From IMG/VR virus record IMGVR_UViG_3300037067_004899, positions 6,502 through 70,501 of that record: a stretch of 64,000 bases of DNA, one strand, 5' to 3'. Each line of letters opens with the position of its first letter. The first letter of the stretch is position 1. Shown here piece after piece: positions 26,112-63,289 of this stretch. The DNA is from a virus (Duplodnaviria > Caudoviricetes). Below the pieces are notes generated by a model. That model made no database searches, had not been told where the DNA came from, and saw nothing but the letters and a program-made list of their open reading frames with translations. The translations under genes and the position numbers were made by a program.

Positions 26112-27716
26112 TTAAAATAAGTTAAGTAATTTCTCTACAGCTGCTAAAATAAGATTTATTCTCTGTTCTTGAAAAATCTTGACGGATTCCGCGATATCCA
26201 TTCCCCTCTTTATACGTCCTTCGCTTCGGATTTCCGCAATATAGATATCAGGCTGGACGTATTCGTCGATCAAAGTCCACGCTTTGTACTTTTGAAACGC
26301 AGGGTTGACAGATTTGTTCTTTTCAATAAAATCCTTTATTTCCAATAACTCAACCCTGTAATCATCCTTTGCACCATCTATCAATTCAAACTCAGGCATG
26401 ACGATCTCTTTGTCAAAAGTAAATTCGTCCAAGGTCTTGTTTGGGATAGACTTAATTATCAGCCCCCTCTCTGTGCAGTTGTAGACTTCTGGTTTCACAC
26501 GGTTTACATATTCCTCGTACCAGTTTCGCATTGAAACGAACGAGGGTTCAGTAAAGCACATTTCACCTTTGTTGTTGGTCATTTGCATTAAGTTGGTTTC
26601 CTGAATGTCCTGGTTGAACTTTGTCCCGTCGCAGTATAATTTATTGTCAGTATAGGACAAATCCATTCCTACTAAAAGAATCGGGCTGCACCCCATTTTA
26701 TGAAGTACGTCAAGCGCGACATTCGCCACTGACGGACCGGATTCAAATATAGGCAGTTCAACGGTTGTGTACCTGTTGACGTTCAGTTGCATCTGTATCT
26801 TGGGACCTTTATAATTTAGTGAATTTTGTGCGATCTGTGTGTCAAAAATTAAGGGCACATCAGAGTCCAGGTTTTCATGTAACCCGCCTGACGTAATGGG
26901 GTCTTGGTCTATCGCGATCATGTAGGTTGGTCTTATATCGTGAGAGTGCAAAATTTCCATTGCGGTTGACGCGGCGATCACAATGGCTTTACTTTGAATA
27001 TCCCTTAGTTTTTCTAATTGAGTTTTTAGACTTGGTCCCGCCCCGACAATGATACCGGGCAATCCCTTGTGTGCGTCTATCAAAGTCTTTCCGTTATATG
27101 AGGGTTTGCGGGCATTGATTATCCGGTTGGCGTACCATTTGTCCACAAGACATCTTTTTGTATTAGTCATTACCGCATAATCGTTTATCATTTGCTTAAC
27201 ATGATTTAATAATAGGTTAAAATAATCCTGGTACACGTTCGCATAGAACGGAAGTAGCATTATCCCCCTTGCTAATGGGTGGGTTATCATTTCATAAATC
27301 TTTGCCTTAACAAGGTCAACAGATTCATCCAGCCAGACAGTACAATTTTTTATGATAAACTCAAAGTCTTTTATCTGAATGGCGTGGTAAAACAGTCTTT
27401 TGTCCGGTTCAATTACGATTATTTTTTTATCCGGATATTTCTTGATTAAAGACTCTATGTGGTTTCCCAATCCAAGCCCGTATACAATAATAGTATGCAG
27501 GTCAGGGTTAACGTTTTGCAGCCAACCTTCATTATCTGAGGTTCCCACAGTCAGCATTTTATCCTCTGAGTTTATCACCAGATTATCAACTGCTTGGTTT
27601 TCATTCAACCCGAACATTACCTGTTCTGTAAATGTCAATGCGGTTTCAGGGGTTTGAATCTTTTTAAATGCTTCCGGCTGAAACTCACTTAAAAGCTTAC
27701 AATTTCTTTCAAACAT
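26112..27716 (-). CDS. maf: Maf (motility-associated factor, DUF115/MAF_flag10) nonulosonic-acid O-glycosyltransferase
   Basis: IIVYGLGLGNHI, IIVGAGPSL, IVIAASTA..IRPTYMIAID, GPSVANVAL..MGCSPILLVGMDLSY, VYNCTERG. Confidence 0.85.
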   Translation of the reverse strand: MFERNCKLLSEFQPEAFKKIQTPETALTFTEQVMFGLNENQAVDNLVINSEDKMLTVGTSDNEGWLQNVNPDLHTIIVYGLGLGNHIESLIKKYPDKKIIVIEPDKRLFYHAIQIKDFEFIIKNCTVWLDESVDLVKAKIYEMITHPLARGIMLLPFYANVYQDYFNLLLNHVKQMINDYAVMTNTKRCLVDKWYANRIINARKPSYNGKTLIDAHKGLPGIIVGAGPSLKTQLEKLRDIQSKAIVIAASTAMEILHSHDIRPTYMIAIDQDPITSGGLHENLDSDVPLIFDTQIAQNSLNYKGPKIQMQLNVNRYTTVELPIFESGPSVANVALDVLHKMGCSPILLVGMDLSYTDNKLYCDGTKFNQDIQETNLMQMTNNKGEMCFTEPSFVSMRNWYEEYVNRVKPEVYNCTERGLIIKSIPNKTLDEFTFDKEIVMPEFELIDGAKDDYRVELLEIKDFIEKNKSVNPAFQKYKAWTLIDEYVQPDIYIAEIRSEGRIKRGMDIAESVKIFQEQRINLILAAVEKLLNLF

Positions 27717-27864
27717 TCTGTACCTCCTGTGGGTAAACCATGCCGGCCCCGATTTTGTCGGTAGAGTCAAGCACGATAAACATGTTATCAAATGTCTGTT
27801 TCCCGTTTATCTCCACCGGGTTAAAAGTTATAAATTGAAAAATAACATCAATTCCGTTTTCCAT
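27709..27864 (-). CDS. 51-aa ORF bridging neuB and maf (not in ORF track)
   Basis: GGAGG RBS inside neuB 3' end; its TGA overlaps the maf start (ATGTTTGA). Confidence 0.55.
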   Translation of the reverse strand: MENGIDVIFQFITFNPVEINGKQTFDNMFIVLDSTDKIGAGMVYPQEVQNV

Positions 27865-28570
27865 TGTTCCTCCTTATAATTTCGCACATTTTAGTAAAAT
27901 CGCTCGGTAATAACGATACGGCAGCATCGACGCATTTTTCGTCTGATAGCATGAAATGTTTTTCAACCATTTCTGCGCCATGCATATCAACCGCATCTAG
28001 GGCATTCTTAATCCCAACGCAATGGCACGAAAGGCCAACCGGCACATGGAATTTTTTCTTCAGCCGTTTAATCTCAGATAGTTTGTAATCGCCTGGCCGT
28101 GACGGATATTTTGAAACACAGTAAAGCAATGTCACGGGAACGTCAACCTCGTTGAGAATCCTTTTGATCTGATCGTCGTCTATTTTGCCAGTTGAAATAA
28201 TAAGCGGTTTACCGAATTCAGCCACTTGCTTAACAAAGTTTAAGTCAGCCGCTTCGGGACTTGCTATTTTAAAGCGTTTCACGTAACCAGATATTTCCTC
28301 CGCGCTGAACTTGTCAAAGCATGTACACAAAAACTCGACATTTTGCCGTTTGCATTCGTTTGCAATGATTGGGATCCATTGCGGGCGTAGGCGTATTTTA
28401 TCCAGCAGTTTGAATGAATCAAAACAATTTCGGTTAACACATAAAATATCTGTATAATAGAATTGAAACTTTGCTATGTCCGCGCCGCACTCCTTTGCTA
28501 TTCTAATCATGTCAAGTGCCTTGTTAAGATCGCCCATGTGGTTAAGGCCGATTTCTGCGATTATTTCCAT
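27848..28570 (-). CDS. neuB: NeuB/SpsE-family nonulosonic acid synthase lacking C-terminal SAF domain
   Basis: IIAEIGLNHMG, GADIAKFQ, FKIAS, KPLIISTG, LLYCVSKYP, VGLSCH, MVEKHF. Confidence 0.93.
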   Translation of the reverse strand: MEIIAEIGLNHMGDLNKALDMIRIAKECGADIAKFQFYYTDILCVNRNCFDSFKLLDKIRLRPQWIPIIANECKRQNVEFLCTCFDKFSAEEISGYVKRFKIASPEAADLNFVKQVAEFGKPLIISTGKIDDDQIKRILNEVDVPVTLLYCVSKYPSRPGDYKLSEIKRLKKKFHVPVGLSCHCVGIKNALDAVDMHGAEMVEKHFMLSDEKCVDAAVSLLPSDFTKMCEIIRRNNGKRN

Positions 28571-28590: not shown

Positions 28591-28610
28591 AGGCACCCTT
28601 TCGAGTGCCT
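28591..28610 (-). terminator. Hairpin, possible weak intrinsic terminator
   Basis: AGGCAC-loop-GTGCCT followed by TAATTTTT on minus strand. Confidence 0.45.
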
Positions 28611-31600
28611 ATTTTGCCATCTTGAATTTAGGTATTTCGCTTTCTTGCCGTTTGTCCTTTTCCTCTTGCTTGGTAGGTTTCTTTATATTTAGTTTACCTG
28701 CCATATATAACTCAGCTTCGTTCCCGATTTCCTCCATAATATTGCTTATCACTTTAAGCTTGGTTTCATCGGGTAAGTCTGAAAACTCCTTTCCTTTTGT
28801 AGATTTGGCAGTAATTAAATTATCCAATGTACTCCATGTCATTTGTCCGACGTACTTTTGTAAATCGGCTTTTTGGTCATTTGACAAAGGGTATTCCGTC
28901 CCGTATATCTTTATTTTGTTGGTCTGAAGCTTGGGGAATTGCGAGGTCTTTCCTGTTGACTTGTAAAGGTCAATCAGTAAATCCCTCCCGGGTGATTTCT
29001 TGTAAATTCCCAAATACCCCGGACTTAGCAGAACATTCAAGGGATTGTTTGAACCGCCTGCGTACATTTCTTTTGTCTCTCCCGTAGTCGTGAGTACAGC
29101 GGGCAGTGTTTTTGAGGCTCCGGGGAAACGATTCTTAATCAAGTTGATTGCCTTTTGCTTCGGATCATCACTTGCCACGTCGCGCTTGGTATTGTCGGTC
29201 ATTTGCCGCACTTGGTTGACTATGGACCCCATCGGAACAAATCTTGACGGCATGGATACTAATGTCTGTGTTAGCCGTTCGCCAAAATCCTGATAATAAT
29301 TATTGCCTAATAGATTAGATATTGCATCGTTTTCAGCAAAAGTTTTCATGCCGGCGCCAAAAGTATCCGGCAATGCTTTCAACGTGTTCAGTTTTATACC
29401 TTCTTGCGCCACATTCGCGCCCAAACCGATATTGAATGAAAATGGAGCAAACCAATCATAGGTATACCACTTATCACCGTCCTGAGGTTTCAACAGTGAA
29501 TCATCCTTGAATCCGTTTAACGCCCATCTTGCGATCGCATCCGCGTTGAATGAATATGCCTTCGAACCGTTTTCATCAAAGAAATTCCGCGCTTCCTTAT
29601 CACTTGGAGCCTGTCCCGTCATTGCGCCCTTAGCAGTGAGATAATATCCTGTTCCTGACAACAACAGTGTCCCGCTTACGGCTTTGGTAATGGACTCTAT
29701 CAGCTTTTCACGGTTTAGCCCGCCTGTGCCTTTAGCGGATTTATAAACCCCTTCACCTATGTAATACAACGATTTGGCAAACCCAGCTAAGCTGTATTCA
29801 AGCCCGATGTTTAATAATGCCCCCGGTGTACGTGCGAACATCATTACGGCATCGCCTAACCCGAATTCCCTTGAAGGGATTTTTCCTATCGTCGCTTGTG
29901 CCTTGCCTATTCCGGCAATGTTTAACGTATCGTGAACGCCTTTCAAAATGTCACTTATCACGTTAGCGTCCCTGAATGTAGCTTTTTCGCCTTGGCGGTT
30001 TGCAACGTCCAAAACACCTTTTGAGAATTCAGACATGTTTTTAGCACTGTTTATAACTCCATCGGCGTATATCTTGGCTTGCGCTTTTAAAGCTTTCCCG
30101 CGGAACCCCTCGTTCATTGCTTTTAAGACAGACTGTTCGCCGATTGAATCCATGACGGCCTTCATGTAAAACGGATAATCACCCGCACCACTCAAAGCCG
30201 CACCTAATGCTTTTTCCATGTAGGTCAAAGGATTGTATTTTCCTCGGAACGCCTGCGTAGCCATCTTAAATTCACTTATCGTTCCATAGGGGTTGTATCC
30301 TTCCCAGCCCGATTTTAAACCCGTTTTAATATCGCTGAAAAATTCTTTAAGTACATTATCCAAGCCACGGTTTGTCTTAAAGGTAACTGTTCTGTCTTTA
30401 CCTGTAAGTTTGGACGTAGTAAAGTCTATCGACGACATAAAGGCTTTGTTTACCCTCATTGCAGTCGCTTGCGCAATATTGCCGGGTACGTTACGCGCTA
30501 TTATGGTTTTAGTGTTCAAAAGCGTGTTTATCATGGTGAATGCTTTGGCTTTTGCAGCAAACGATGACGGAATTTTGCTTTGAATTTCCGACATCATTTT
30601 ATTTACGGAAGCCTGTCTCTTGAATACGTTCGTCATGCCTTGAATCTGTTCGGTCTGTTTGATGATATACTGCGCTTCTTCCGCAGTCAGTCCGGGGATA
30701 TTGTATTTTTCATTCAGTATCTTGGCATACTTTGAATCACCTATCGCGCCCATGTTGGACAGTTCGATAATCTTGTCCGACAGAGATTTCCTGAGATACG
30801 TTTTTTTAGGCTTGAATAAATTATCAAGTATAAGTTTTTTCTTGGCTGCAGTCAGTTCCTTCAGTCGTGTAGTGAATATCTTTTCAACCTTTTCAGCCAC
30901 GTCCTTTGACAAGCCCGCTTCCGTGACAAATTTCTGCGCTAATGTCTGGCCTGTTTCATCAATTTCAGATACATGCTTTTTGGCAATATCCTGCAATTTT
31001 ACCCCGTTATCGCTTAATACTTGCCTGATCGCCTTGTCTACAGAAACATTCATTTTCTGTTCCGGCGTTTTCAAAGACTTGGATTTTATCAGATTCAAGG
31101 AATTATCGTAAATTTCCTTAAGATAAGGCTTTACTTTTTCTCCAAATTCCGATATCATCTCAACGGACCATTCCGCGAAATCTAAGGTCTTTCTCGCCAG
31201 TCGTGCCGCGCCTATCTTTGTCAAGTCGGTTAAGACTTCCCCAGGTAATCCGGCGCGCATTTTAATTATTCCGCTTGTATCAGGTTTGAAATATTCCTTT
31301 ACCCTCGTAGTTGCTTCTGTCTCTTGTTTTTCAAGCCATTCACGCACAGCTTTTGAAACACGCGGTTTATTTGTGATATCACGAAACGCAGCGTCAACAC
31401 TGTCAAGGTTAGCCTTGTTCAATGCTTCCATAACTGGTTTGGCAGACTTGACCTCTTCCTTTACTGCTGTTTTGACTTCTTTCGGTACAACCTCATCCAA
31501 CACCCTTTGTATCTTTACAAGCGTTCCGGCAGGGCTTGCTTTATCCCATGCCGTATCCGTGCCTTTTAATGCCCTTGCTGTTTCACGGGTCTTTTCCGCT

Positions 31601-34600
31601 ACCACAGGCAGCCATTCAAGCAAGCCTTCGGTATCTCCCTGCTTTGCTTTTTCAACAAGGTCTTGTGTGATAACCGCCGCTTCATGCGCTTGCGTGCCGC
31701 CTGAAATAGACTCTGCTTCACGGATATTCTTTATAACTGCGTTCCTGTCCTTTTGAATGTTCTGAATAGCTTTATCCTGCCATTCCTTTGATGTTTCAGG
31801 TATAAAGTCAAAATCCTCCGTTTTGATCTGTTTCTTTATCTTATCAGGTATTACAGTAGTACGGTCGATTGTGTTGGTCTTGAACTGACTCGTTTTAAGC
31901 TTCTGTACGCCGTTTTTAGCGACTACTTCTGCCGAGGGTGCCTTTGCCTGTTCAGCCGTTTTTAAAGTCCGTGTGCCTTGTGCAACGTTTCCAGTTGCTG
32001 ATTCCTTTGCATATTTGCCTTCAACCTTAGGCGGAACAGTAGACCTCGCCACAGTGAACGGTGTTTCCTTACGGTACTGTTCAGGAACGTTGAATTTAAC
32101 GTTGTTTGCAGCTTCGTCATATATTCTGGCTTTTTCTTTTATAGCTTGCTTTTCTGCTAAATCAGCAGTATCAATTTTAGAGAGTGATTTTACCCAATCT
32201 GACTGAGATTTTACAACAGGTTCCTTGGGTATCAAGTCAGACTGCTTTGTTATGTTTTTGGGAAAATTTAGTTTTTCAGCCTCGTTTTTTGTTACGGCAA
32301 AAGGACGCTCTATTTGCCTTGTTTTTTCTGTAAGAGATGCTATGGCGCTGGAATCTGGCTGAGATTTAACTGGATTTACATATGTAGCGCTCCCATCTGA
32401 ATTAATTGTTTTATTCCATTTGTTAAGCATATTTTTTAATCTTGCACTTGCCGTCTTGCTACCTTTTGCACCTTGTTTTATAGTAATGCTTTTGACAGAA
32501 TCAACATAATCCCAGTGGCTATTTTTACTTGCAATAAATTCTGCATCTCCATTTTGATATGATAATTCCCATGCCGGTTTTGATTTATTTACATTGCCTT
32601 TTAATTTTGCGTTAGGTTCAAACTCTATTAGTACGCCTTTGTTATTTCCCTGCCCTAATGCTAAGTCTTTGTTATTTGAAAGATAAATATTGTTATATTC
32701 CATGTCTTTAATGTAATTGCTGTCAACTAAAGGAAGAGCATCATCCAAGCTTGTTTCATGATACATAGTATCTGAAAATTCTTTTAAAAGTTTTCTGTTG
32801 TTATCGTTTTGAGGTAACCGGAACTTTTTAAGTTCTCCTTTGGTTACTGCAAACGGGCGTTCAATTTGCCTTTCAGGTGCCTTAACGGATGCAGAAATTT
32901 CAGACTCAACTTCCTGTATACCATTCCTACTATACATGGGTTCATTACCTAAAAGCTCATCAACTTCAGCAGGAGTCAGCACATCGCCTTCCTTGCCGAA
33001 ATATTCCTCCCTTGTCATTGTGGGCTCGACAGCTTTAGCTTTAGGCGCGTTCAATAGTAAAGGTGCTTTTTGGCCGCTTTTTAGTGTGTTGCCATATTGG
33101 TCAACGGTAAAATCAGCCTTTTTTTCTGCAATTTCCTTTTCTTTTGGTAAGGCTTTTACTGGAGTATTCAGCTTTTTTATCTCTGCCGTTGTTGGTTTTG
33201 GCGGTAACGATTCAATTACATCAGGCGTACGTAGTTTCGGAGCTTCCAGCATAAGATACTGTTTTGCTTCCGGCAGTGTGCGGAGTTCAGGCGTATTATT
33301 GACTACTTCCTTTTCTGCTGCCGTAAGCTTTTGACCGCCTTTTAGCTTTTTGAAAACCGTTTTTGCAATCCCACTTAAACCCATTATTCCAAGTTCCGCA
33401 CCCATGCCGAATAATGCATTACCCGTTATTGTTCTTAGTGCATTCTTAGCAATCTTGCCATAGTCAGTAGAATATAATTTCGCTTGGTCTTCGTGCAGCG
33501 TTTCAGCGTATTTACTTGCTTCACCTTCGGTCTTAAACTTACCCAAGTATTCACCTGTTTTTTTATACCACTGCCAAGCTTCTTCGGATGTCATTTTCCT
33601 GTCTAAACCTTTGCGAACACCTGGAACAAGTACAGCAGTACCATCATCGTTTGTAAATGTCATTGAATACACTGTGCTGATTGAACCATCTGGATTCTTT
33701 ATTGTAGGTCTATCGTTTAGGTCAACATTCCCCTTGCCATAATCTGGCTGTTTAGGCGTATCAATTTCCTTCTGTGTAGCAATCTGCTGTGCGGAGTACG
33801 GCAGTGATTCTATTGTACCTTGTACCACTCTTTTACCGGCCTTATTCGCTATTCCTTCAGCAACAGGAAATAACTTATTCACTGCTTTTTTTGCCAGAGT
33901 ATTAGCCGCAGTGGGCAGTGTAACACCGGGACTGCCTGTAGGAACCATAAACCCTGCTATTGTCCCGCCTACGTCCGAAATAACGTTTCCAACCTTTCCC
34001 GCGCCGCCAATTCCGGCAGATTCAGCGTAATCCTTTGCACTGCTGTCGCCGAACCCTACTGACATGGCTTGCCTTCCGGTTCTGTCAAAAACTTTCCCGA
34101 GAGTGCCTTTTTTAGCATAGTCAACTTTTTCCATGGCTTTCTGAAACTGCTGTGTGAACCCTTCCGGGACTTTCTTGTCAAAATAGTATGCGGTAATTTC
34201 GCCGCCCATGTTGTAGGATTTTGGATCCAAGGACAACCCCTTGCTTAAGATGTCTATTTCGTCAGCGGTCAACACTTCTTTGGCTTTTTGCCTTGTTTTC
34301 TCCTCGTCTTTTTTAAGCATACTTCCAATTACAGGCGTGTTGTAAAAAGATGACTTGCTATTGTAATTCGGTATTTTTGCAGCAGCCTCCGACTTCGCCT
34401 TTTCCTGATCGATTCTGTTTTTTATATCTACAAAGTTTGTTGACAACTTAAATGGCGCATTAAATATAGTGTCGGAAGTACCTTTCGCCTGCGTATTTTG
34501 GGTTGATACCGGCAAATTGAGCGTAGGAAATTCAAGGGTATGTTGTTTTGCAATGCTCTGATAGGCAGGGATGCTTTGTACAGGGGTAACAGTTTCAAAC

Positions 34601-34716: not shown

Positions 34717-34729
34717 ATAATCACCCACT

Positions 34730-53924: not shown

Positions 53925-55651
53925 TTCCTTCCATATTTTTTTTGATAATATCGTTTCAGTTGTGGATTTTTGGTTGAATCTATCAACACACTCGGATGGG
54001 TGTATTTGTTGTTGTCCCATTTCTCGGGTTCGGGTGTGGAATAGGCGCGTTGCTGTGACCGGGCTTCATGCATGATCGCGAATGAAAGTACACAATCATC
54101 ATGGAATCCTTGTTCAGCTTCTTCTTTTCCACTATGCGCGTATATAAATGTTGTCATTTCCTGCAACGTAGCCACGTCGTTTATGAGGTAAGCTTCGTCA
54201 CGCACTATTGCCCTTGTCTTGTCTATAAGCTTCGGGCGCGTTGAAACTGTCGTAAGGAATCCGAATTTTTGCTGTCTCTTTTGAGAGATTTCGTCGTATG
54301 TTTCACGTTTGTATTGATTGTAATATCCCAAATACTGCAAGTGTTTTATAACAGTAAGTCCATGATTGTTCTGTTCGTTAGAAATAAGGGCATTATTGTA
54401 ATACCGTGCAAGTTTTATCTGTTCTTCCGCAAATCTATCCGGTTCAATGTGTGATCTTTGTGTCGCAACTTGATTTCCGGTTGTGTTGTCACAAACTTGG
54501 CTGACGCTATAGTCGCCTCCGCGTATGCCTTCAGCTGCATCTGCACCAATGCAATAAGGGCGATTAACTTTCGGGTGTTCATAAATTGTCAGCGAACCGT
54601 TTTTATCTGGTACAAATACGTACTTACCGTTAACAATATCGATGTATCCGACATCTGGCGGTTTTTTATCATATTCATTTCTTAGGTACTCAAGCCGTCT
54701 GGTTATTTTTGCCATGTCAAATACCGGCCTGCCTGATGAAAGGAAACTTTCTTCGGGACATGCGGGATATTCTTGATGAAATTGATCCAAGTCGCCTGAA
54801 CATTTATTTTTTATAGCCCATCTGCGCCATTCTAATTGGTCGTTATCAAGGTCATATTCTTTTTTGATACGTATTTCTTCGTTATCCAGTTCAAAACCGG
54901 TGTAAGGCATCCTGTAACCTTCATCATCAAACCAAGGAACAAATAATGTAATATAACTGTTTTTACCTAATACCGCATCATCCCACAGGCTTTTAAAGTA
55001 GTTCATTCCCTTTGATGTGCTTTCACAAATGACAATACTGTTCGTCTGTGGAACGGAGTTGAGCAATGACGTCATTGTTTCCTTGATGTTTCCCGGCCAT
55101 TTCGCCACCTCAGATAAATGAAGATAATTTATCGTATATGAAGAACCGGCGTTCTTGTTATCTGCTGTTTCAATTAGAAACTTACATTGCAAGCCAGGGT
55201 CATTACCTTGAGAAATAGGTTTTGATGGGTCAAATTTCGGATTTTCCAGTAACAGCCCTTTACTTAAGCTAGATCGTTTTGCTGGTTTTAAAAATTGCGG
55301 CAATTCCTGATAAAACAAATCTGACATGTTGTTTATCGTAGTCGCGCTATCCGCATCGTAACTGACTATCATTGCAACTTTGCCTAAACTAAAATGCAGT
55401 TCCTTAAAAAAAAGAGCCTCAGTGCATGTACTGAAACCCTGTTTTCTGCTTTTGCATATTATTACATATAAAGTAGGCCTTGTTTTTTCATCCGGATATT
55501 GTTCTTTCCAATCCTCCACAATCTTTACGAGTCTGTCTTGACTCTTGTTTGTTATAAATGGTTTTATCGTACTTGTTTCCCTGTCTCGTATCTTCAGACA
55601 GGTTTTAAAATACAATTTAGTACCGTTCATCAGTTTTTTCAGATCATCCAC
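53921..55651 (-). CDS. terL: Terminase large subunit
   Basis: ICKSRKQGFST Walker A, HLSEVAKW Walker B, CESTSKG, IGADAAEG, HDDCVLS nuclease aspartates. Confidence 0.93.
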   Translation of the reverse strand: MDDLKKLMNGTKLYFKTCLKIRDRETSTIKPFITNKSQDRLVKIVEDWKEQYPDEKTRPTLYVIICKSRKQGFSTCTEALFFKELHFSLGKVAMIVSYDADSATTINNMSDLFYQELPQFLKPAKRSSLSKGLLLENPKFDPSKPISQGNDPGLQCKFLIETADNKNAGSSYTINYLHLSEVAKWPGNIKETMTSLLNSVPQTNSIVICESTSKGMNYFKSLWDDAVLGKNSYITLFVPWFDDEGYRMPYTGFELDNEEIRIKKEYDLDNDQLEWRRWAIKNKCSGDLDQFHQEYPACPEESFLSSGRPVFDMAKITRRLEYLRNEYDKKPPDVGYIDIVNGKYVFVPDKNGSLTIYEHPKVNRPYCIGADAAEGIRGGDYSVSQVCDNTTGNQVATQRSHIEPDRFAEEQIKLARYYNNALISNEQNNHGLTVIKHLQYLGYYNQYKRETYDEISQKRQQKFGFLTTVSTRPKLIDKTRAIVRDEAYLINDVATLQEMTTFIYAHSGKEEAEQGFHDDCVLSFAIMHEARSQQRAYSTPEPEKWDNNKYTHPSVLIDSTKNPQLKRYYQKKYGRK

Positions 55652-56292: not shown

Positions 56293-56784
56293 TCACTCTT
56301 TATAGTTTTGCGCTAACTTTTCCAGCGCGATATCCCGTATGTTGTAGCAGTTCCTTTCGCTATTATTGGTTTTTAAGGCTACTGTGAGCCATTCGTAACC
56401 CTTTATATATCTGTGGTAGATTATGTTGTATTCGTTCTTGTCCAAGCATTTAAGAGCATCATACATGTCTGTTTCCGCCTGATTATAGAGTTTGATCTGA
56501 GCGCAGTAATAGTCGAGGTGTACCTGGTATTCATCGATGATTTTCTGAACGGCTTGATATACAATATCGCGCATTTCCGTTCCGTGTGGCATACCGTCAA
56601 AATTAGGCACTTTTAGCGTATTGACAGCGTTTTGCTTGAATTGCTGCGTTTCCCTCAGTTTTATTTCAATTTCACGCCGTCTTTCCGGTATATTGGAATA
56701 TTCAATCAGCAATCTTTCCATGTGCAGTAATTTCAACCGTATCACCTCACGTTCTTCTGAAAACTGGTTTTTCGCAATGTCCAT
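56293..56784 (-). CDS. ArpU/RinA-family transcriptional activator
   Basis: ALKCLDKNEYNIIYHRYIKGYEWLTVALKTNNSERNCYNIRDIALEKL sigma-4-like HTH. Confidence 0.8.
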   Translation of the reverse strand: MDIAKNQFSEEREVIRLKLLHMERLLIEYSNIPERRREIEIKLRETQQFKQNAVNTLKVPNFDGMPHGTEMRDIVYQAVQKIIDEYQVHLDYYCAQIKLYNQAETDMYDALKCLDKNEYNIIYHRYIKGYEWLTVALKTNNSERNCYNIRDIALEKLAQNYKE

Positions 56785-58114
56785 TTATCAAACTTTCCTT
56801 TACGTAGTTATTATTCAATGCCGCCTTGCAAGCCATTAGTGCTATTTCTACGGCTTCTATTGTGCGGTTAACCTCTTTATCTGTATGTGATGCACTAGGG
56901 GCTATATATGGCATTAAAATCCCTTCTTGGATCATAACTTGGTCGAACAAGGTTTTCAGCGCCATGCTTGAAAATGAAATTGACGGATTTGCGCCCTCTA
57001 TTATCCCTATACTTTCATTGCCGTGGCATTTTATTTTTATGTGTTGGCTTAGATATGTTCCATCAGATAATTGTGTATTGTATTTTAATATAGTTTCATT
57101 TATCCCCCGCACAATAAAACGCCCTATTTGGTTAATGCAATCCACCGCATCTTTAGGGTAATCGTTGTAGCCATTATAAAATTCTGTTTTCTGCAATTCT
57201 TTCACGCAGGCAATTGCCGCAGCTATGTCAGGCGTGTTGGAAAAATAAGTCCCGGACAGCAGGAAGACATTGCCTTTATCGCGTAACCCAAGATCAAATA
57301 ACTCTTTTTTTCCGCACAGGGCAGATACAGCATATCCATTCCCCATAGCCTTGCCAAGCGTACAAAGGTCTGGATTTACGCCGTATAATCCTTGAACGCC
57401 ACCTATTCCGTACCGGAAACCGGATATTACCTCGTCAAGTATCATGATTATGCCGTATTTATCGCATATGTTGCGGATATGCTGAAGTTTTTCGCGGGTT
57501 ATGTCTACTGTGGAGGGGTCAAGGACAATGGCGGCAGGTCGATATGCTTTGCATAACCATTCAATTTGTGTTATTTCATATTTATTATTCGGACTAAAAT
57601 ATATTTCACGAGGGTGCGTTATGTCCGTTAGCGTATTATATGAATAGTGCTCAACTGTTTCGGAGTCTTCGCAGGGTATGCCACCATCCACAAGGGTAGT
57701 TCCAATGAAAAAGTCTGCCGTTGATATAAACGGGTTTTCCTTTGCAATAAGCACTAAATCCCTGCCCGTGTAAGCCCTAGCCAACTTTACGGCGGCATGT
57801 GTTACGTCCGAACCATTCTTCCCAAGTTTGACCTCTTCAGCACAAGGGATAATCGACTTTAGCAGTTCTTTTAATTCCCCCTCATACGGATTTGACCGCG
57901 TAAAGCACACCCCGTTATCTATCGCTTTCTTTGCGGCGTCATCCACAGGTTTATATGCGTAGCCAAGTATACAGGCGCGTAAAGCCATTCCCCAATCAAT
58001 GAATTCGCGTCCATCCTCTGCTGTCACGTGGCAGCCGGATCCTTTTACGAACGTGTCCGGACAATTTGAGCTAAAACAATCATCTGAACGGCTGTATGTT
58101 GCGTAATGTTTCAT
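56747..58114 (-). CDS. Class III PLP aminotransferase (GSA-aminomutase-like, sugar-cluster type)
   Basis: GREFIDW..ILGY, KNGSD..AAVKLARAYTGR, ILDEVISGFR, TLGKAMGNG. Confidence 0.9.
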   Translation of the reverse strand: MKHYATYSRSDDCFSSNCPDTFVKGSGCHVTAEDGREFIDWGMALRACILGYAYKPVDDAAKKAIDNGVCFTRSNPYEGELKELLKSIIPCAEEVKLGKNGSDVTHAAVKLARAYTGRDLVLIAKENPFISTADFFIGTTLVDGGIPCEDSETVEHYSYNTLTDITHPREIYFSPNNKYEITQIEWLCKAYRPAAIVLDPSTVDITREKLQHIRNICDKYGIIMILDEVISGFRYGIGGVQGLYGVNPDLCTLGKAMGNGYAVSALCGKKELFDLGLRDKGNVFLLSGTYFSNTPDIAAAIACVKELQKTEFYNGYNDYPKDAVDCINQIGRFIVRGINETILKYNTQLSDGTYLSQHIKIKCHGNESIGIIEGANPSISFSSMALKTLFDQVMIQEGILMPYIAPSASHTDKEVNRTIEAVEIALMACKAALNNNYVKESLINGHCEKPVFRRT

Positions 58115-58680: not shown

Positions 58681-59037
58681 TTATTTGTGTCTGCCGTTTA
58701 TGTGACGTGTATAAGCAGACGTGCCATAGCAATCAATTCCACAAATTTCGCATTTTATTATTCTGTATCTTAATTTTTGATTCTGTTTTTGATTCTGTTT
58801 TTTAAATGCAGTAATTTCCTTATTTGTTTTAGGTTTCAACTTTTTTATGATATTATTTAATAGTGTTACTTGCTTTTGGGTTTCCAACATTGTATTTTGG
58901 TTGATTTGGTGCACTTGCTTAAGTTCTTTTAAATATGATTTTAAATCGCATATATCGCATTGTTCTATTTCATCAATGCCCAATTGTTTTATTAAGATGC
59001 AGTTTTCGTATATGCACACACTATTACATTTACTCAT
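58681..59037 (-). CDS. Cys-rich protein with C2H2-like finger
   Basis: CEICGIDCYGTSAYTRHINGRH. Confidence 0.55.
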   Translation of the reverse strand: MSKCNSVCIYENCILIKQLGIDEIEQCDICDLKSYLKELKQVHQINQNTMLETQKQVTLLNNIIKKLKPKTNKEITAFKKQNQKQNQKLRYRIIKCEICGIDCYGTSAYTRHINGRHK

Positions 59038-59926
59038 GTTCCTCCACCTTTCTAAGCATTTCCATAACAGCCATTTCATCCTCGCGGTTGAATAAATACT
59101 GTTCCTTGCCTTGTATTGCTGCAATCCAGTTCGCCAGTTCACTCCGGTACATTTCTTCGCAAATATTAGAGTTATATCCCTCCGCCGCTGTGCCTTTGGA
59201 ATACGATATCGGCAATATTGCTCCACTTGGATGCTCGAGTTTAACATAATCGTCATTCCAGTTCCACAGGAGATTACATTTTTCGCCTACAATACGCAGT
59301 TTGCGGATTGCAGGACGAGATAGTATATCAATCAGGACGGTACCAATTACTTCTGCAAATTTAACCGATGCAGAATATACATCATCAGCTGATATGTCCA
59401 GGTCGTCCAGTTTTTTATCGATAAATCCAGTGCAGTCAGTCGGGGATCCGAACAGGTAAGATAACCACGATAATTCAAAGCAGAACATTTCCTTTGTTCC
59501 TAACTCCGCTGCATAATAACTTTTAAAGTCAAATCCCGCCAGTCTCCAATCTCTTAAATGCATCCCGCAATGATGAGTGAATGTGTATATTTTGCCTAAC
59601 GTGCCATTGTCGATAAGTTCCTTTATCTTTTGTACAGCAGGATGAAAACGCATGGTAGATGAACTGTAATATGTTCCTGTGTATTCCGTCACATCCGCTT
59701 CGCAGAACACTGGAATCGTTAAAGCATTTGCTAAATCAATGTAAATTTGTTTTGTCAAAGGAGGACTGCATACCAGCAATGCGTCAGGTTTAAGCATGGT
59801 AACTACATCGCCACACTTACTGTCATCCATTATGTCCCATGTGAAATACTCATCGTATCCCAAGGTTTCTAGGCAACGTTGCCTCCTCTTACTCATTGAA
59901 CCTCGTCCGATAATTCCAAATCTCAT
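59030..59926 (-). CDS. Gfo/Idh/MocA-family oxidoreductase
   Basis: FGIIGRGSM Rossmann start, LLVCSPP, PVFCEA, MRFHPAVQKIKELI. Confidence 0.88.
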   Translation of the reverse strand: MRFGIIGRGSMSKRRQRCLETLGYDEYFTWDIMDDSKCGDVVTMLKPDALLVCSPPLTKQIYIDLANALTIPVFCEADVTEYTGTYYSSSTMRFHPAVQKIKELIDNGTLGKIYTFTHHCGMHLRDWRLAGFDFKSYYAAELGTKEMFCFELSWLSYLFGSPTDCTGFIDKKLDDLDISADDVYSASVKFAEVIGTVLIDILSRPAIRKLRIVGEKCNLLWNWNDDYVKLEHPSGAILPISYSKGTAAEGYNSNICEEMYRSELANWIAAIQGKEQYLFNREDEMAVMEMLRKVEEHE

Positions 59927-60447
59927 ATATCTACCTCAATTAACCTTTCTGTTTCATCAAGTTCATTCAGACAGTTTCCGTCATAGTTATAAACTGCGCT
60001 GTGACCATTTACATTTATGCCTGCAACAAAGCATTTCCCCTCAATTGCCCTTGCCTTCAGCAGTGTGTCCCAGTGATGTATACGTTCAAACGGCCAACAA
60101 GCGGGCACGATTATGAGTTCGGGCTTTTCCATTCGTGCAAATAACTCTGGGAAGCGTAAGTCATAGCAGATCACCACATAGGTTTTCATGTTGTTTATGT
60201 ATGTATGGGGCAGATTAACCCCTGCTGTTCGGCCTTCATCGTACCCTGGGAACAGGTGATTCTTTATGTAGACGAAATCACCTATGCGGTATGCGTTAAG
60301 CTTTAAATTAAATACGTTGTCCTCATATCCATAGCCTGTCAGACTGTTTATACGTGTCGGTGTGACCATTTCAGGCCAAAATATGGGATGGTTTTCAATG
60401 ATCTCCCACTTGTTGCCGAGTTTTACTTGCGCCAATGTGATTTTCAC
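59923..60447 (-). CDS. Compact nitrilase/carbon-nitrogen hydrolase
   Basis: Glu (WPEM), Lys (YIKNHLF), Cys (ICYDLRFPE) triad; ARAIE. Confidence 0.85.
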   Translation of the reverse strand: MKITLAQVKLGNKWEIIENHPIFWPEMVTPTRINSLTGYGYEDNVFNLKLNAYRIGDFVYIKNHLFPGYDEGRTAGVNLPHTYINNMKTYVVICYDLRFPELFARMEKPELIIVPACWPFERIHHWDTLLKARAIEGKCFVAGINVNGHSAVYNYDGNCLNELDETERLIEVDI

Positions 60448-61145
60448 TTGCCTGCTTCACCTATCCTTTCCCAATACTTCTTATTCAGGTATAAATTTGA
60501 CTTCGCAATGTCAGGGTGCTTCAGCAGCCAGTCGCATATCCCTCCGACGGTCATGTTCCGTTTACATTTTGTCAAGACCGCCTCGATTACGTCAAAATCT
60601 TCAGAATAATCCATAGTCAAGCGATAGTCATGGTCGTATCTGAACGGTATCTCCACATATCGTCCTTTAAAAAGCTGTGCGCCCCACCCGGTGTCGGTAT
60701 CAAAATTGACTTCTTTCAGTTTGCTCACAGGATAAGCTATCACATTGAGTCCTAACGGAAGTCCAACCGTGCGTATCGGTAAAAGTTCTTTCATTTGCTG
60801 AACGCAGTAGTAGACTGACTGGATTGTTTCAGGTGTTACCAAAATATCATCACCGTCCGCATTGATGATAAAGTCAATTTTGTGTTTCAGGGCGCAATCA
60901 AGGTGCCTTTTAATGATATTTTGCCTTTCCCCGGAAAAAAAGCCAATATTGTTTCTATCGGCTATGGCCTTCATGCGCAAATTGTCTTCCGGCGTATCCG
61001 GCGTACACATTATGATAGGTATTTTTGAACGTTTCAGACGTTTTATCAGTATATCAGTTAATGTTTTGCCGTTTATGTCCGTTAAGTGCTTACCAGGTAG
61101 ACGGGTTGAACCGTAACGAGTGGTTAAAAAGATGCAAGTTTTCAT
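60444..61145 (-). CDS. SpsF/NeuA-type acylneuraminate cytidylyltransferase
   Basis: RYGSTRLPGKHL, INADGDD, RLTMDYSEDF. Confidence 0.88.
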   Translation of the reverse strand: MKTCIFLTTRYGSTRLPGKHLTDINGKTLTDILIKRLKRSKIPIIMCTPDTPEDNLRMKAIADRNNIGFFSGERQNIIKRHLDCALKHKIDFIINADGDDILVTPETIQSVYYCVQQMKELLPIRTVGLPLGLNVIAYPVSKLKEVNFDTDTGWGAQLFKGRYVEIPFRYDHDYRLTMDYSEDFDVIEAVLTKCKRNMTVGGICDWLLKHPDIAKSNLYLNKKYWERIGEAGK

Positions 61146-62084
61146 ATTGCGCCCTCCAACTCCGAATAGTTCATTGCAAGGAGTTTGTTCTGTACTTGCA
61201 GTATTCTAAGATTATGTAAATAACTAACATTCCTTACGGCTTTTTTTGCTATTTTGTAGGGTTTAGTGCCAAATCTTAAATCATATTCAAAAACACATTC
61301 ATCTTCAATATTGATTCTAAAAGAACTATATCCTATCCCATACGACCGAACAGTAATTAAATATTTTTTAATGCTGATACTTGTTGTGATATAATCTTTG
61401 AATTCCCAAGCATCAATGTTTTTTGTTAACAAGGAGCAGATGAGATCAATATACTTTTGTTCCATCAGTTTGGCTTCTTCTTCTATGCTTACTTTTGGTG
61501 TATATTTTTCCTCCGATTTATTTGCCGCTTGCCATTCCTGAATCTCTTTTATAGCTTCTAAAGTTTCAGTTTTCATATTACACCTCGCAACGCGTTACCA
61601 TACGTTCTGTAGTGTTCGTGTTCAATATCTTGCAGCCTGTGTAATTCGTCGGCGCTTATTATGTAAAAACTAATCCTGTGTTCTTCAACAAAGCAATCTT
61701 TAGTTGTCCTTGTTTCTCGATTTATGGGTAATTCATCCATATTATCTTGAATAACGCAAGCAATCCCGCGCGATAATTCACGCTTTACAATACGTTCTAT
61801 GACTTTTTTGGGTATATTCTTTTTCATTTGTTCAGTAACATTGTAACAGCTAAATAATTTTTCAATATCTTTCATAATCAACTAAACTCCTTCAAAAATA
61901 TTTTTGAGTCAGAGATACATGTACATGTTACTTGTCCGTACAAGTAATTAATTGTCCCATCTTCCTCAACAAATGGCATTGTGGGTAAATTTCCATGTAT
62001 ATCCCTTATCGACATCGCTTCTCTTATTTTGTCGCCCAAACCCTTTCTTTTTTTCGGGATTAATCGATTAAAAAAACTTTTCAT
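61142..62084 (-). other. Three small hypothetical ORFs inside the sugar cluster (61142-61576, 61573-61881, 61878-62084)
   Basis: Overlapping start/stop codons. Confidence 0.55.
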
Positions 62085-63289
62085 ATTCCCTCCAATATCT
62101 TTACTATCCTAGCAGACGAATGACCGTCGCCATATGGGTTCTCACACTTTCCAACCGTCGCTTTCCATTCCCTTGCACGTCCCATGGCGGTCAAAATAGC
62201 GTCTGTCTCGCATGGACATGAAATTACATTGCCCGGTTTAATACGTCCATCCTGACGGTTACCGACGGTTACAGACGGCAGATTGAACGATGCTGATTCA
62301 ATGACTCCGCTGGACGAGTTGCCTACCATCATTTCGGCATATTGGAGTAGGGACAAGTAGGTAAGATGGTCAAGGTTGTCAGCAACGCAAAGTCTTTTGT
62401 CGTCCTTTATATCAAACCCAGTTTTAAGATATTGTATCGATTCCCTTATTTGTTTATTCTCGGGGTCACAGTTTGGTTGTATTAAGATTACTTGTTCGTC
62501 TATACCTGCTATCGCGGTTAAAAAACTTACAATATAATGCTTTGTACGTTCCAATTCCTTTGTAACGGGATGAAAACAAGCCACTATAAACGGCTGGTCA
62601 AGGTTAATGGGTGTATTGGGTTGTAGTGCATCCTTGGAAAGTAGTTTTGCACGGGTCAGCCAGTCAAGGGCAGGGGAACCGACATTGAAAACGTTTATTT
62701 TTTGGTCAGGATAATATTTATCCCAGTCTTCACCTGATAGCCACATATCATATGCCTCACACCAATCCCAAGTACATGGATTTGGTAAATGCGGATTCAT
62801 TTCAAGATAGTTGATAATAGGCTTAATGCCTAACATTAAACCAACTTTTTCAGCGTAATCCTTTGTTGCTGTAAAATGATATGTGGACATTTGGGTAATT
62901 GAATTGCGGAGTTCATTGTCGAACGCTCCTAATGTTGTCTCTCCACCCGCTATATGCGCTATGGGAATATTTAACAGCAATGCTGCTGTGGCTGCTGCAT
63001 GGACTTCAAACCTGTCACCTAAAATTACAACCATGTCTGGTTTGAGTAGGTTATACATCTCTAAACATCTGTCGAAAAACTGTCCTATGTCGTATATGCT
63101 ATCCATGTCGCCTAAAACAACATGGTTGTTGTGATCGGTAAATTCGTTCCATATTTCTTCCCGGCAATGATGGGTATATGGATATGCTATTTGCAGTTTA
63201 AGTTTATCGCTGGCTTCTATATCTTTCATGATGAAATATAAATAGCCAAAATCGGCACGGCAGGTTGAAATTATACATATTTTCTTCAT
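62081..63289 (-). CDS. neuC: NeuC/LegG-type hydrolysing UDP-sugar 2-epimerase
   Basis: ISTCRADFG, KPDMVVILGDRFE, HIAGGETTLGAFD, FHPVT, MVGNSSSG, VGNRQDGR, NPYGDG. Confidence 0.92.
   Translation of the reverse strand: MKKICIISTCRADFGYLYFIMKDIEASDKLKLQIAYPYTHHCREEIWNEFTDHNNHVVLGDMDSIYDIGQFFDRCLEMYNLLKPDMVVILGDRFEVHAAATAALLLNIPIAHIAGGETTLGAFDNELRNSITQMSTYHFTATKDYAEKVGLMLGIKPIINYLEMNPHLPNPCTWDWCEAYDMWLSGEDWDKYYPDQKINVFNVGSPALDWLTRAKLLSKDALQPNTPINLDQPFIVACFHPVTKELERTKHYIVSFLTAIAGIDEQVILIQPNCDPENKQIRESIQYLKTGFDIKDDKRLCVADNLDHLTYLSLLQYAEMMVGNSSSGVIESASFNLPSVTVGNRQDGRIKPGNVISCPCETDAILTAMGRAREWKATVGKCENPYGDGHSSARIVKILEGI

Follow-up and report, generated by a model that had tools for sequence, protein, structure and literature searches.

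This locus raises the question of what a tailed phage would modify with a predicted sialic-acid-like sugar of its own making. We analyzed the IMG/VR virus record IMGVR_UViG_3300037067_004899, a permuted genome of 70,501 bp, 100% complete according to CheckV; the window is the 64,000-nt stretch at record positions 6,502-70,501. In this window, an earlier note had recognized seven open reading frames (ORFs) on the minus strand as a 4,6-dehydratase, an aminotransferase, an acetyltransferase, a hydrolysing 2-epimerase, a NeuB synthase, a CMP-transferase, and a Maf protein, and all seven lie at the coordinates it gave and match these families in profile searches (Pfam, NCBIfam). As judged from such matches, the late genes of this phage and its relatives hold every enzyme family for a CMP-activated, nine-carbon sialic-acid-like nonulosonate, plus a full-length Maf. 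The note's description of the pathway as complete holds for the genome but not for the window, as the canonical DegT 4-aminotransferase lies outside it. The best explanation, to which we give an even chance, is that a temperate, probably Firmicutes phage carries its own CMP-nonulosonate route and that its Maf modifies its own virion protein or proteins.

The late-strand phage setting that the note described is borne out by PHROGs matches for terminase, portal, and major head protein and by Pfam matches for a holin-like ORF, an endolysin, and an integrase. The terminase large subunit (53921..55651, minus strand; PHROGs 38407, 24361, and 6681) and small subunit (466..1029, minus strand; PHROG 51, 100 bits) are split by a block of ~13-15 kb that holds six sugar genes, a layout also seen in the relative G002. 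A transcriptional regulator or activator (56293..56784, minus strand; PHROG 36, PHROG 248) lies between this block and the terminase. The portal protein (51573..53549, minus strand; PHROG 156, 83 bits) is 76-83% identical to the relatives' copies. The major head protein (47759..48718, minus strand; PHROGs 133, 371, and 4523, with a weak Mu gpT match) has annotated major capsid proteins among its tblastn matches, and a further virion structural protein is predicted at 41222-43015 (PHROGs). Directly after Maf is a lysis cassette (25164..25999, minus strand; Pfam) with an XhlA-like holin candidate, whose match is weak, and an NlpC/P60 endolysin (ELLD 97 bits, NLPC_P60 36 bits); relatives have a holin and Amidase_2 or Amidase_3 at this place. 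A tyrosine integrase (18396..19595, plus strand; Phage_integrase 81 bits, plus SAM-like domains) marks the phage as temperate, as the integrase or serine recombinase of the relatives does for them. The genome represents an uncultured, conserved lineage of 57-70 kb temperate tailed phages, and the host phylum is probably Firmicutes. Several DNA methyltransferase and radical-SAM genes are also present within the genome.

The putative sugar route can be followed through its steps, all assigned at family level from sequence. It would start with a UDP-GlcNAc 4,6-dehydratase of the Polysacc_synt_2 (PseB/Pen/CapD) type (50771..51583, minus strand; Pfam 210 bits), a short 270-aa form that would convert UDP-GlcNAc into a 4-keto-6-deoxy sugar. 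Its best NCBIfam model is PseB (204 bits), and among solved structures it matches Pen 6BWC (161 bits) and PseB 2GN4 (145 bits) best, with PglF at ~100 bits. The STDK and YGHSK motifs are intact, and the triad residue is Tyr, as in PseB and Pen; the retaining dehydratases PglF and SpsM carry Met at this position (PMC7439481). The gene follows that of the portal, which it overlaps by 11 nt, and has the same place in G002 and two other relatives, L013 and L015. The amino group at C4 would most likely be introduced by a DegT/LegC-type sugar 4-aminotransferase (genome 2176-3306, within the record's first 6.5 kb; minus strand, 316 bits). The note had given this step to the gene at 56747..58114 (minus strand). 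That gene does encode an aminotransferase (Aminotran_3 94 bits; NCBIfam PRK06209 345 bits), but of class III (glutamate-1-semialdehyde-aminomutase-like), and we know of no use of this fold at this amination step in characterized Neu, Leg, or Pse routes. The G002 and L013 copies are 56-67% identical to it; the gene always lies immediately upstream of the terminase and appears to be a conserved accessory gene and a tailoring candidate.

N-acetylation would follow, by a PglD/NeuD-type left-handed beta-helix N-acetyltransferase in the LegH role (36906..37469, minus strand; Hexapep and PglD_N 30 bits, NeuD/PglB/VioB model 128 bits). Its catalytic HDC motif is intact, its best solved relatives are 4-amino-sugar N-acetyltransferases, and its gene overlaps that of a LysM protein by 44 nt. 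A NeuC/LegG-type hydrolysing nucleotide-sugar 2-epimerase of 402 aa (62081..63289, minus strand; Epimerase_2 197 bits) would then yield the free 6-deoxy-hexose. This epimerase scores 301 bits against NCBIfam NeuC_NnaA (cut-off 236), and its best solved relative is the A. baumannii GDP/UDP-diNAcBac 2-epimerase 5XVS (162 bits), with N. meningitidis SiaA at 29 bits. Its GDRFE, GGE, and FDxxxR motifs are intact, it has a ~38-aa insertion, and it is 49% identical to the G002 copy.

Condensation of the 6-deoxy-hexose with PEP would fall to a nonulosonate synthase, NeuB (27848..28570, minus strand; Pfam NeuB 166 bits), whose 240 aa form a TIM barrel only. It has no SAF domain, and this short form is kept in relatives (233-240 aa). 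Both metal-binding His residues (SCH, EKH) and the KFQ, KIAS, and YP motifs are intact, and the NeuB and PseI models score almost equally on it (164 vs 159 bits). CMP activation could be performed by a 233-aa CMP-nonulosonate synthetase candidate (60444..61145, minus strand; CTP_transf_3 43 bits, cut-off 22.6, residues 9-145), whose best solved relative is the cytidylyltransferase 6OEW (61 bits). Its gene has a 4-nt overlap with each neighbor, and the protein is 54% identical in G002. The end product would be a CMP-activated 5,7-diacylamido-3,5,7,9-tetradeoxy-nonulosonate, although this route is weakened by the SAF-less NeuB and the weak CMP-synthetase match (43 bits).

Two further genes accompany the synthetase. 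One encodes a GFO/IDH/MocA-type oxidoreductase (59030..59926, minus strand; GFO_IDH_MocA_C3 39 bits), a conserved accessory gene whose product is 51% identical in G002, where it adjoins the CMP-synthetase gene as well. The other encodes the C-terminal part, 174 aa, of a carbon-nitrogen hydrolase (59923..60447, minus strand; CN_hydrolase 47 bits, profile positions 106-246 only), for which tblastn against G002 gave no match. The oxidoreductase and the class-III aminotransferase probably tailor the sugar. Overall, the predicted enzymes fit a legionaminic-type route (LegG-like, PglD-like), with the exception of the PseB/Pen-like dehydratase; neither PseG nor PseH was found in the genome. A plain legionaminic route fits poorly because the dehydratase has the Tyr of PseB and Pen, not the Met of PglF and SpsM, and with this Tyr in the triad the enzyme set does not fix the stereochemistry of the sugar. 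The family matches, with an epimerase closest to LegG, agree with the earlier proposal that the phage encodes a NeuC/LegG route to a CMP-nonulosonate, which here would be of the 5,7-diamino-tetradeoxy type, together with a Maf.

The predicted transferase is a full-length Maf-type nonulosonate O-glycosyltransferase (26112..27716, minus strand; MptE-like 124 bits, Maf_flag10_N 38 bits) of 534 aa from the ATG, or 559 aa from a TTG at 27791, and would link the nonulosonate to Ser/Thr. The sole structural match of its AlphaFold model (pLDDT 90.7) is the Maf 5MU5 (Foldseek E 4e-21), the three-domain fold of which is kept in the model. The 5MU5 structure is from Magnetospirillum magneticum. Like bacterial Mafs, the phage protein combines an MptE-like core with a Maf N-terminal domain; unlike them, it has a shorter C-terminal helical domain that cannot be aligned to theirs, and its ~30-32% identity to Clostridia Mafs applies to the alignable residues 1-430 only. 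A resemblance between the C-terminal domain of bacterial Maf and flagellin chaperones has been noted (PMC11339370). The 29 phage-type Mafs that we aligned form one clade beside the Clostridia Mafs (SH-aLRT 100, stem 1.45), and the long stem of this phage clade suggests a functional shift. No other glycosyltransferase was recognized among the 70 ORFs scanned. Some IMG/VR contigs also gave matches confined to the Maf core, at 23-29% identity.

We find that the arrangement of these genes is conserved. The order runs TerS, DegT, NeuC, CMP-synthetase, oxidoreductase, class-III aminotransferase, TerL, portal, dehydratase, and capsid genes, and continues with PglD, LysM protein, giant protein, NeuB, Maf, and lysis genes. 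All sugar genes are on the late (minus) strand, at four loci interleaved with structural genes, and 4-nt overlaps join the run from NeuC to the oxidoreductase. NeuB and Maf follow the tail/ejection genes and precede the lysis cassette, and in this genome and all relatives compared the holin and endolysin come directly after Maf. This location is a classic moron position. A terminator-like hairpin lies upstream of NeuB/Maf, and a hairpin almost identical to it is found after another late gene. The same gene order is seen again in relatives from other samples: G002 has the whole layout, with sugar enzymes 49-58% identical, and ~10 further contigs have the local layout, with Maf identity down to 38%. 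The co-occurrence with terminase and portal, a check proposed in the note, recurs in the relatives' contigs. Maf, NeuB, and PglD are under strong purifying selection (dN/dS 0.06, 0.10, and 0.17; 0.09 for a neighboring structural gene). The conserved synteny across samples rules out a chimera of phage and host sequence. Dead enzymes are ruled out by the intact active-site motifs of the dehydratase, NeuB, PglD, and NeuC and by the dN/dS values (0.06-0.17) of Maf, NeuB, and PglD.

In the favored explanation, Maf would act in the cytoplasm at a late stage of infection, shortly before lysis, and would modify one or several virion proteins of the phage itself. The candidate acceptors comprise a 147-aa cement-like protein, the major head protein, a mucin-like linker in the LysM protein, and tail proteins. 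The 147-aa protein (48734..49177, minus strand), a small Ser/Thr/Ala-rich beta protein encoded between the scaffold and the major head protein, contains 21% S+T and few charged residues, and is 77-83% identical in relatives. It has no matches in Pfam, PDB, or AlphaFold; its ESM Atlas neighbors carry Phage_cement_2 or Phage_cement (scores 0.92-0.93), and this language-model similarity makes a capsid cement or decoration role a lead only. The LysM-domain protein, a virion-associated lysin candidate (34730..36949, minus strand; LysM 40 bits, PHROG 4602 transglycosylase), has a mucin-like Pro/Thr/Ser linker (residues 62-108, ~50% S+T) and a poly-Ser run at residues 139-149. A giant protein of 2046 aa (28609..34749, minus strand) probably belongs to the virion as a polyvalent or ejected protein, with LPD3, LPD38, and MuF_C among its ESM Atlas neighbors. 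Pfam and PHROG searches with it gave no match, while its homologue in the relative L035 matches Pfam LPD38; its gene always precedes NeuB and Maf in the relatives compared. No flagellin gene was found in the genome. A virion protein is our best-supported guess for the acceptor, held with about even confidence and drawn only from gene position, inferred timing, and the absence of a phage flagellin.

Host flagellin is the main rival acceptor. The only known role of Maf enzymes is to glycosylate flagellin (PMC11339370), and a virion coat is made less credible because every characterized Maf that we met in the literature modifies flagellin. It is also weakened because the phage is temperate and carries NeuB and Maf in a moron position, with a hairpin upstream. 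The pathway and Maf might act on host proteins, most obviously flagellin, either in lysogens or in the course of infection; this would alter flagellar or surface antigenicity or block competing phages that are flagellotropic or bind glycans. The temperate lifestyle of the phage and its relatives keeps this alternative alive, and the adjoining lysis and lysogeny modules and the full three-domain architecture of a Maf sister to those of Clostridia are consistent with it. However, host conversion would require expression of at least nine genes that are scattered over late operons and overlap portal and virion genes, and late genes of this kind are normally silent in lysogens. Flagellin glycosylation minutes before lysis offers no obvious gain, the Maf C-terminal domain differs from the bacterial ones, the long clade stem hints at a functional shift, and hairpins like that before NeuB occur between other late genes too. 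We regard modification of host proteins as rather unlikely.

More doubtful still is an internal or ejected acceptor, either the giant polyvalent protein or the LysM lysin, on which the sugar would protect from proteolysis or tune the protein in the next host's envelope, with no outer coat. The block of PglD, LysM protein, giant protein, NeuB, and Maf is invariant in the lineage, and both the Ser/Thr-rich stretches of the LysM protein and the resemblance of the giant protein to polyvalent injected proteins would suit this role. Adjacency of genes is by itself weak evidence, though, the remaining sugar genes adjoin portal and terminase, and the giant protein has a charged composition that is not Ser/Thr-rich. 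A target other than protein, whether phage DNA (as glycan hypermodification) or a host cell-wall polymer, with transfer by Maf or a host transferase, is very improbable. Phage glycosyltransferases are described as hypermodifying DNA (Pyle 2024, bioRxiv 10.1101/2023.12.21.572611), and the methyltransferase and radical-SAM genes could be read in this light. Against this, the fold and family of Maf indicate protein Ser/Thr acceptors, no thymidylate-synthase-like hydroxymethylase was found in the genome, and the ORF scan found neither a flippase nor a membrane-embedded transferase.

The combination resembles the flagellin glycosylation islands of Campylobacter jejuni, Clostridium botulinum, Geobacillus kaustophilus, and Aeromonas caviae, which also pair a CMP-nonulosonate pathway with Maf. 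Unlike these, the phage genes are embedded in operons of late structural genes, have neither flagellin nor other flagellar genes in their vicinity, and are spread over four loci rather than a single island. The note knew of no phage with a CMP-nonulosonate supply and a Maf, and our literature search likewise found none. GenBank phages yielded no Maf homologue and, for NeuB, just three distant matches, one of them to a record with the title Moritella viscosa. Mimivirus and chloroviruses encode their own nucleotide-sugar supply (4,6-dehydratase, aminotransferase, and acetyltransferase steps) and transferases for their own particle; their sugars are viosamine, bacillosamine, and rhamnosamine, their hosts are eukaryotic, and we know of no report of a CMP-nonulosonate and Maf combination in them. 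To our knowledge, glycosylating mycobacteriophages use ordinary glycosyltransferases and host nucleotide sugars, in a different host phylum, and have no nonulosonate pathway or Maf. Their phage-encoded enzymes are described as O-glycosylating capsid and tail proteins of the phages themselves (Freeman et al. 2023, Cell Host Microbe, PMC10527164; cited in PMC12619734), which is what we propose here from genes alone.

A virion coat would also have a parallel in the Bacillus subtilis spore, a non-flagellar particle that forms at a late stage within a cell destined to lyse, and whose legionaminic acid crust confers hydrophilicity and negative charge (PMC7439481). Its UDP-based CMP-legionaminic route (SpsM, SpsC, SpsD, SpsG, SpsE, SpsF) and that of the phage are both of a Firmicutes type, in which a Polysacc_synt_2 dehydratase acts first and a DegT aminotransferase next; they also have in common an acetyltransferase, a NeuB-like synthase, and a cytidylyltransferase. 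The phage route differs in its dehydratase Tyr (as in PseB and Pen; Met in SpsM and PglF), its LegG/NeuC-type epimerase, its Maf, and the extra oxidoreductase and class-III aminotransferase. If the virion is indeed coated, the nonulosonate would make the particles acidic and hydrophilic.

Profile matches to PHROGs and Pfam identify the source DNA, as judged from gene content, as a temperate tailed phage, because they include terminase, portal, head, lysis, and integrase genes. The minus strand, which carries nearly all genes of the window, encodes the small (466-1029) and large (53921-55651) terminase subunits, the portal (51573-53549), the major head protein (47759-48718), a 739-aa LysM/transglycosylase-like protein (34730-36949), and an NlpC/P60 endolysin with an XhlA-like holin candidate (25164-25999). 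A virion structural protein lies at 41222-43015, and a tyrosine integrase is encoded on the plus strand (18396-19595). Also identified by these searches were DnaB, a DnaD-like loader, Erf, Gam, RusA, and DNA methyltransferases. The window spans bases 6502-70501 of a 70,501-bp record, which is rated 100% complete by CheckV and classed as linear in IMG/VR. It is circularly permuted, and the 6.5 kb beyond the window fits between the small terminase gene and NeuC. Megablast against GenBank phages gave zero matches, and tblastn matched the portal and capsid at 23-30% identity only.

We find that this phage encodes a set of sugar enzymes. An earlier note had assigned seven ORFs to a nonulosonic acid pathway plus a Maf transferase, and all seven are present where it placed them, with profile searches assigning each to the family it named. 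These are a 4,6-dehydratase (50771-51583; Polysacc_synt_2, 210 bits), a class-III aminotransferase (56747-58114; 94 bits, and 345 bits as PRK06209-like), the epimerase NeuC (62081-63289; NeuC model, 301 bits against a curated cut-off of 236), the synthase NeuB (27848-28570), a CMP-synthetase candidate (60444-61145), a PglD/NeuD-type acetyltransferase (36906-37469), and Maf (26112-27716). NeuB (166 bits) and the CMP-synthetase (CTP_transf_3, 43 bits; cut-off, 22.6) are family-level matches, and NeuB lacks the SAF domain both here and in all phage relatives. The acetyltransferase has PglD_N and Hexapep domains, and scores 128 bits against the NeuD/PglB/VioB model, below its cut-off of 161.

In the characterized pseudaminic, legionaminic, and bacillosamine routes, C4 amination is known to be performed by a DegT-fold enzyme. 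The class-III gene is present, as the earlier note stated, but the C4 amination enzyme of the pathway is most likely a DegT_DnrJ_EryC1 aminotransferase (316 bits) encoded beyond the window (genome 2176-3306, minus strand). Its specificity scores are nearly equal for PglE (105 bits) and PseC (102 bits). In G002, a 56.6-kb contig of a related phage, the DegT gene directly precedes NeuC. The class-III aminotransferase is kept in relatives at 56-67% identity, always just before the terminase, and together with a conserved GFO/IDH/MocA oxidoreductase it more plausibly has an accessory or tailoring role. These putative accessory enzymes suggest a derivatized sugar. A legionaminic acid cluster in Leptospira also contains a second aminotransferase, with no role assigned (PMC3438082).

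The enzymes appear to be functional. Catalytic residues, whose absence the earlier note had feared, are in place: GxxGxxG, STDK, and YGHSK in the dehydratase; both metal-binding histidines and the Lys/Glu/Tyr-Pro motifs in NeuB; the catalytic HDC motif in PglD; and GDRFE, GGE, and FDxxxR in the NeuC-type epimerase (catalytic Asp/Glu/Asp). Relative to a phage contig with 87-92% identity (L002), dN/dS was 0.06 for Maf, 0.10 for NeuB, and 0.17 for PglD, with 0.09 for the neighboring LysM structural gene. Intact motifs and low dN/dS together rule out dead genes. Going by these family assignments, the phage clearly has the genes for a self-sufficient CMP-nonulosonate supply and for a Maf, kept under selection in its lineage.

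For the identity of the sugar, we favor a legionaminic-type route, because the epimerase is LegG-like, the acetyltransferase is of PglD type, and PseG and PseH are missing. The best solved relative of the epimerase is the diNAcBac 2-epimerase LegG of Acinetobacter baumannii (5XVS, 162 bits, versus 29 bits for SiaA of Neisseria meningitidis). Neither PseG (TIGR03590) nor PseH (TIGR03585) has a match in the whole genome at E ≤ 1, which rules out the canonical pseudaminic pathway; NeuC/LegG-type and PglD-type enzymes occupy the corresponding steps. A plain Neu5Ac pathway comprising only NeuC, NeuB, and NeuA is also unlikely, given the conservation of the dehydratase, DegT, and PglD, and an epimerase that resembles LegG rather than SiaA. 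The predicted stereochemistry is nevertheless ambiguous, because the dehydratase is closest to Pen and PseB (LegB model, 49 bits; TDK...Y...K motif intact) and has Tyr where the retaining enzymes PglF and SpsM have Met. The favored route would resemble the UDP-based legionaminic route of Bacillus subtilis (PMC7439481).

The transferase itself has a catalytic MptE-like/MAF_flag10 (DUF115) domain (PF01973, 123.6 bits; cut-off, 34.6) at residues 235-382 of its 559-aa form and a Maf N-terminal domain (PF20157, 38.2 bits; cut-off, 23.5). Across an alignment of phage and bacterial Mafs, the GAGPSL and GxDL columns show little or no variation. An AlphaFold model built from 43 sequences (pLDDT 90.7, pTM 0.85) has one strong PDB match, the Magnetospirillum magneticum Maf 5MU5 (E 4e-21; TM 0.59/0.51). 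The phage Maf is, according to this model, full length, with all three domains of the 5MU5 fold, including a predicted C-terminal helical bundle (residues 454-533). BLASTP alignments to Clostridia Mafs cover residues 1-430 only, and the phage C-terminal domain is 60-90 aa shorter. For bacterial Mafs, a resemblance of this domain to flagellin chaperones and flagellin has been pointed out (PMC11339370). The Maf gene is placed between the genes for a giant virion protein and NeuB and the lysis cassette, rather than in a flagellar or flagellin glycosylation locus. A Flagellin_N search of the genome gave no match, and thus no flagellin-like acceptor encoded by the phage was found. Among 70 ORFs scanned, there was no glycosyltransferase besides Maf.

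Phage-type Mafs form a lineage of their own. Approximately 33 Maf clusters at 37-92% identity are on contigs of at most 68 kb, followed by a sharp drop to Clostridia Mafs at approximately 32%. In a quick maximum likelihood tree, all 29 phage-type Mafs sampled cluster together (SH-aLRT 100, stem 1.45), with Acetivibrio and other Clostridia Mafs as its sister. Matches to the Maf core only are also seen in other IMG/VR contigs. In relatives from IMG/VR, JGI, ENA, and Logan, the block of PglD, LysM-type protein, giant protein, NeuB, Maf, holin, and endolysin recurs down to 38-46% Maf identity, and the dehydratase follows the portal in all capsid relatives found. In G002, the order runs TerS, MT-A70, DegT, NeuC, CMP-synthetase, oxidoreductase, class-III aminotransferase, TerL, portal, dehydratase, scaffold, a 147-aa protein, and capsid, followed by the stretch from PglD to Maf. 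Identity to the source phage is 49-58% for the sugar enzymes and 82% for the capsid. Identical gene order in contigs from at least six other samples, together with even GC across the window (37-47%), rules out an assembly artefact, including the phage-host chimera that the earlier note had considered. The system combines a full-length Maf, legionaminic-type enzymes spread over four late loci, and a temperate lifestyle.

The two terminase genes are split by approximately 13-15 kb, an arrangement shared with G002. The block between them holds an MT-A70 methyltransferase, DegT, an HNH endonuclease, the NeuC-to-oxidoreductase operon, and a transcription activator, as well as two radical-SAM ORFs (genome 945-1634 and window 63305-63871). 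The sugar genes overlap with their neighbors: by 4 nt each along the seven-gene run that starts with NeuC and ends with the oxidoreductase, by 11 nt between dehydratase and portal, and by 44 nt between PglD and the LysM gene. NeuB is preceded by a terminator-like hairpin (28591-28610), and a near-identical one lies at approximately 47025-47050 (minus strand), after another late gene and upstream of ORF 46484-47011. Both have the GC-rich form GGCACTCG[A/C]AAGGGTGCC and a T-rich tail. Since a similar hairpin follows another late gene, the one upstream of NeuB says little in favor of a separate moron, a self-contained set that would have a promoter and terminator of its own. The rest of the pathway overlaps portal and virion genes. 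Other terminator-like hairpins precede the terminase and scaffold genes and follow the oxidoreductase gene. Such hairpins may be late-operon attenuators that are passed by antitermination. The intergenic regions yielded no late-promoter motif in common.

What does this Maf glycosylate? We favor virion proteins, with confidence that is about evenly balanced. This choice draws on the sugar genes being embedded in, and apparently cotranscribed with, late structural operons; on Maf being the final late gene before lysis; on the strong divergence of the Maf clade, with its changed C-terminal domain; and on two precedents. The B. subtilis spore bears a legionaminic acid coat on a particle built inside a cell about to lyse (PMC7439481), and virion glycosylation is known in mycobacteriophages (cited in PMC12619734). 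The main rival, conversion of host flagellin or of the host surface, would fit the temperate lifestyle and the known specificity of Mafs; set against the late-operon placement and diverged C-terminal domain, we consider it unlikely. Were flagellin the target, this would be an unusually large lysogenic or lytic conversion system, likewise undescribed. Glycosylation of ejected proteins is more doubtful still, and non-protein targets are highly improbable. DNA hypermodification finds no support, with no hydroxymethylase found in the genome. The full reading in which virion proteins are the acceptor, namely that temperate phages of this lineage produce a legionaminic- or pseudaminic-like sugar themselves and that their full-length Maf, retargeted, O-links it to non-flagellin proteins of their own virions, is one that we would believe and doubt in equal measure.

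If virion proteins are the acceptor, several candidates are available: the capsid protein, the LysM protein with its mucin-like Pro/Thr/Ser linker and poly-Ser run, Ser/Thr-rich tail proteins, and the highly conserved, Ser/Thr/Ala-rich 147-aa protein encoded between the scaffold and major head protein genes (48734-49177, minus strand). The single lead on the latter, from the ESM Atlas, is to a cement protein; its structure model has a pLDDT of 35.8, and Pfam and PDB profile searches with an 11-member family gave no match. The giant 2046-aa orphan (28609-34749, minus strand) is probably a "polyvalent" injected protein. Its C-terminal 800-1200 residues are approximately 55% conserved, and the N-terminal part is variable. 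Its ESM Atlas neighbors carry LPD3, LPD38, or MuF_C, and a 2152-aa homologue in a related contig (L035) has a Pfam LPD38 match.

In searches of full-text papers, no phage that combines a nonulosonate pathway with a Maf was found described. Among GenBank phages, Maf homologues are absent and NeuB has just three distant matches, including one in a record titled Moritella viscosa. Nonulosonic acids, which correspond in bacteria to sialic acid, make surfaces charged and hydrophilic and can hide them from recognition. If the virion is the target, this would be a naturally "sialylated" phage particle, the first nonulosonic acid virion coat in a bacterial virus, and the first non-flagellin substrate class for Maf enzymes. 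With its own activated sugar and transferase, virion surface chemistry could be independent of host glycan metabolism. Such a coat could alter particle stability, adhesion, and aggregation, or the recognition of phages by host defenses, grazers, and immune systems. A Maf acting beyond flagellin would also be relevant to glyco-engineering, such as the neo-sialylation of proteins in Escherichia coli. The pathway would in addition supply compact, apparently minimal enzymes, with a dehydratase of 270 aa and a NeuB of 240 aa that has no SAF domain.

Indirect hints point to a Firmicutes host: the DnaD loader, XhlA-like holin, and LysM protein, strong GGAGG ribosome-binding sites, the Clostridia sister group of Maf, and Amidase_3 and Cu_amine_oxidN1 in relatives. 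GTDB genomes contain no close Maf relative, and the capsid has relatives only in contigs assigned to Paceibacterota and Babeliales MAGs. Lineage contigs (L013, L014, and L015 from GTDB genomes, and P0007) are found in MAGs labelled Candidatus Paceibacterota, Babeliales, and Nanoarchaeia; as genes for terminase, portal, capsid, and sugar enzymes are present on them, these are probably phage contigs that were binned wrongly and not host evidence. ARAGORN predicted neither tRNAs nor a tmRNA for the window, and tRNA-like RNAs proposed at 22967-23298 had no Rfam match at gathering thresholds.

Other features of the genome were observed. A 591-aa structural-module protein (43995-45770, minus strand) contains a calcineurin-like phosphoesterase domain (Metallophos, residues 357-532). 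As neither G002 nor L013 has a counterpart, the protein occupies a variable slot, perhaps as a receptor-binding or depolymerase protein. A 313-aa protein (39103-40044, minus strand) with 23% Ser/Thr and few charged residues is not conserved in G002. It strongly matches PHROG 27227 (191 bits; function unknown). A Kelch propeller had been suggested for it, and Pfam gave no Kelch match at E < 0.01. HNH homing-type endonuclease genes follow the capsid gene (47071-47673, minus strand) and adjoin DegT (1718-2179, minus strand, of L005, the stretch at genome 1-6500). In a relative (L009), another is inserted between NeuB and Maf (8612-9856). Finally, a match to the type-P5 twister ribozyme (1758-1812, plus strand; Rfam 41 bits, gathering score 37.6, E 4e-5) lies exactly at the junction of the plus-strand ORFs 1325-1759 and 1763-2182.
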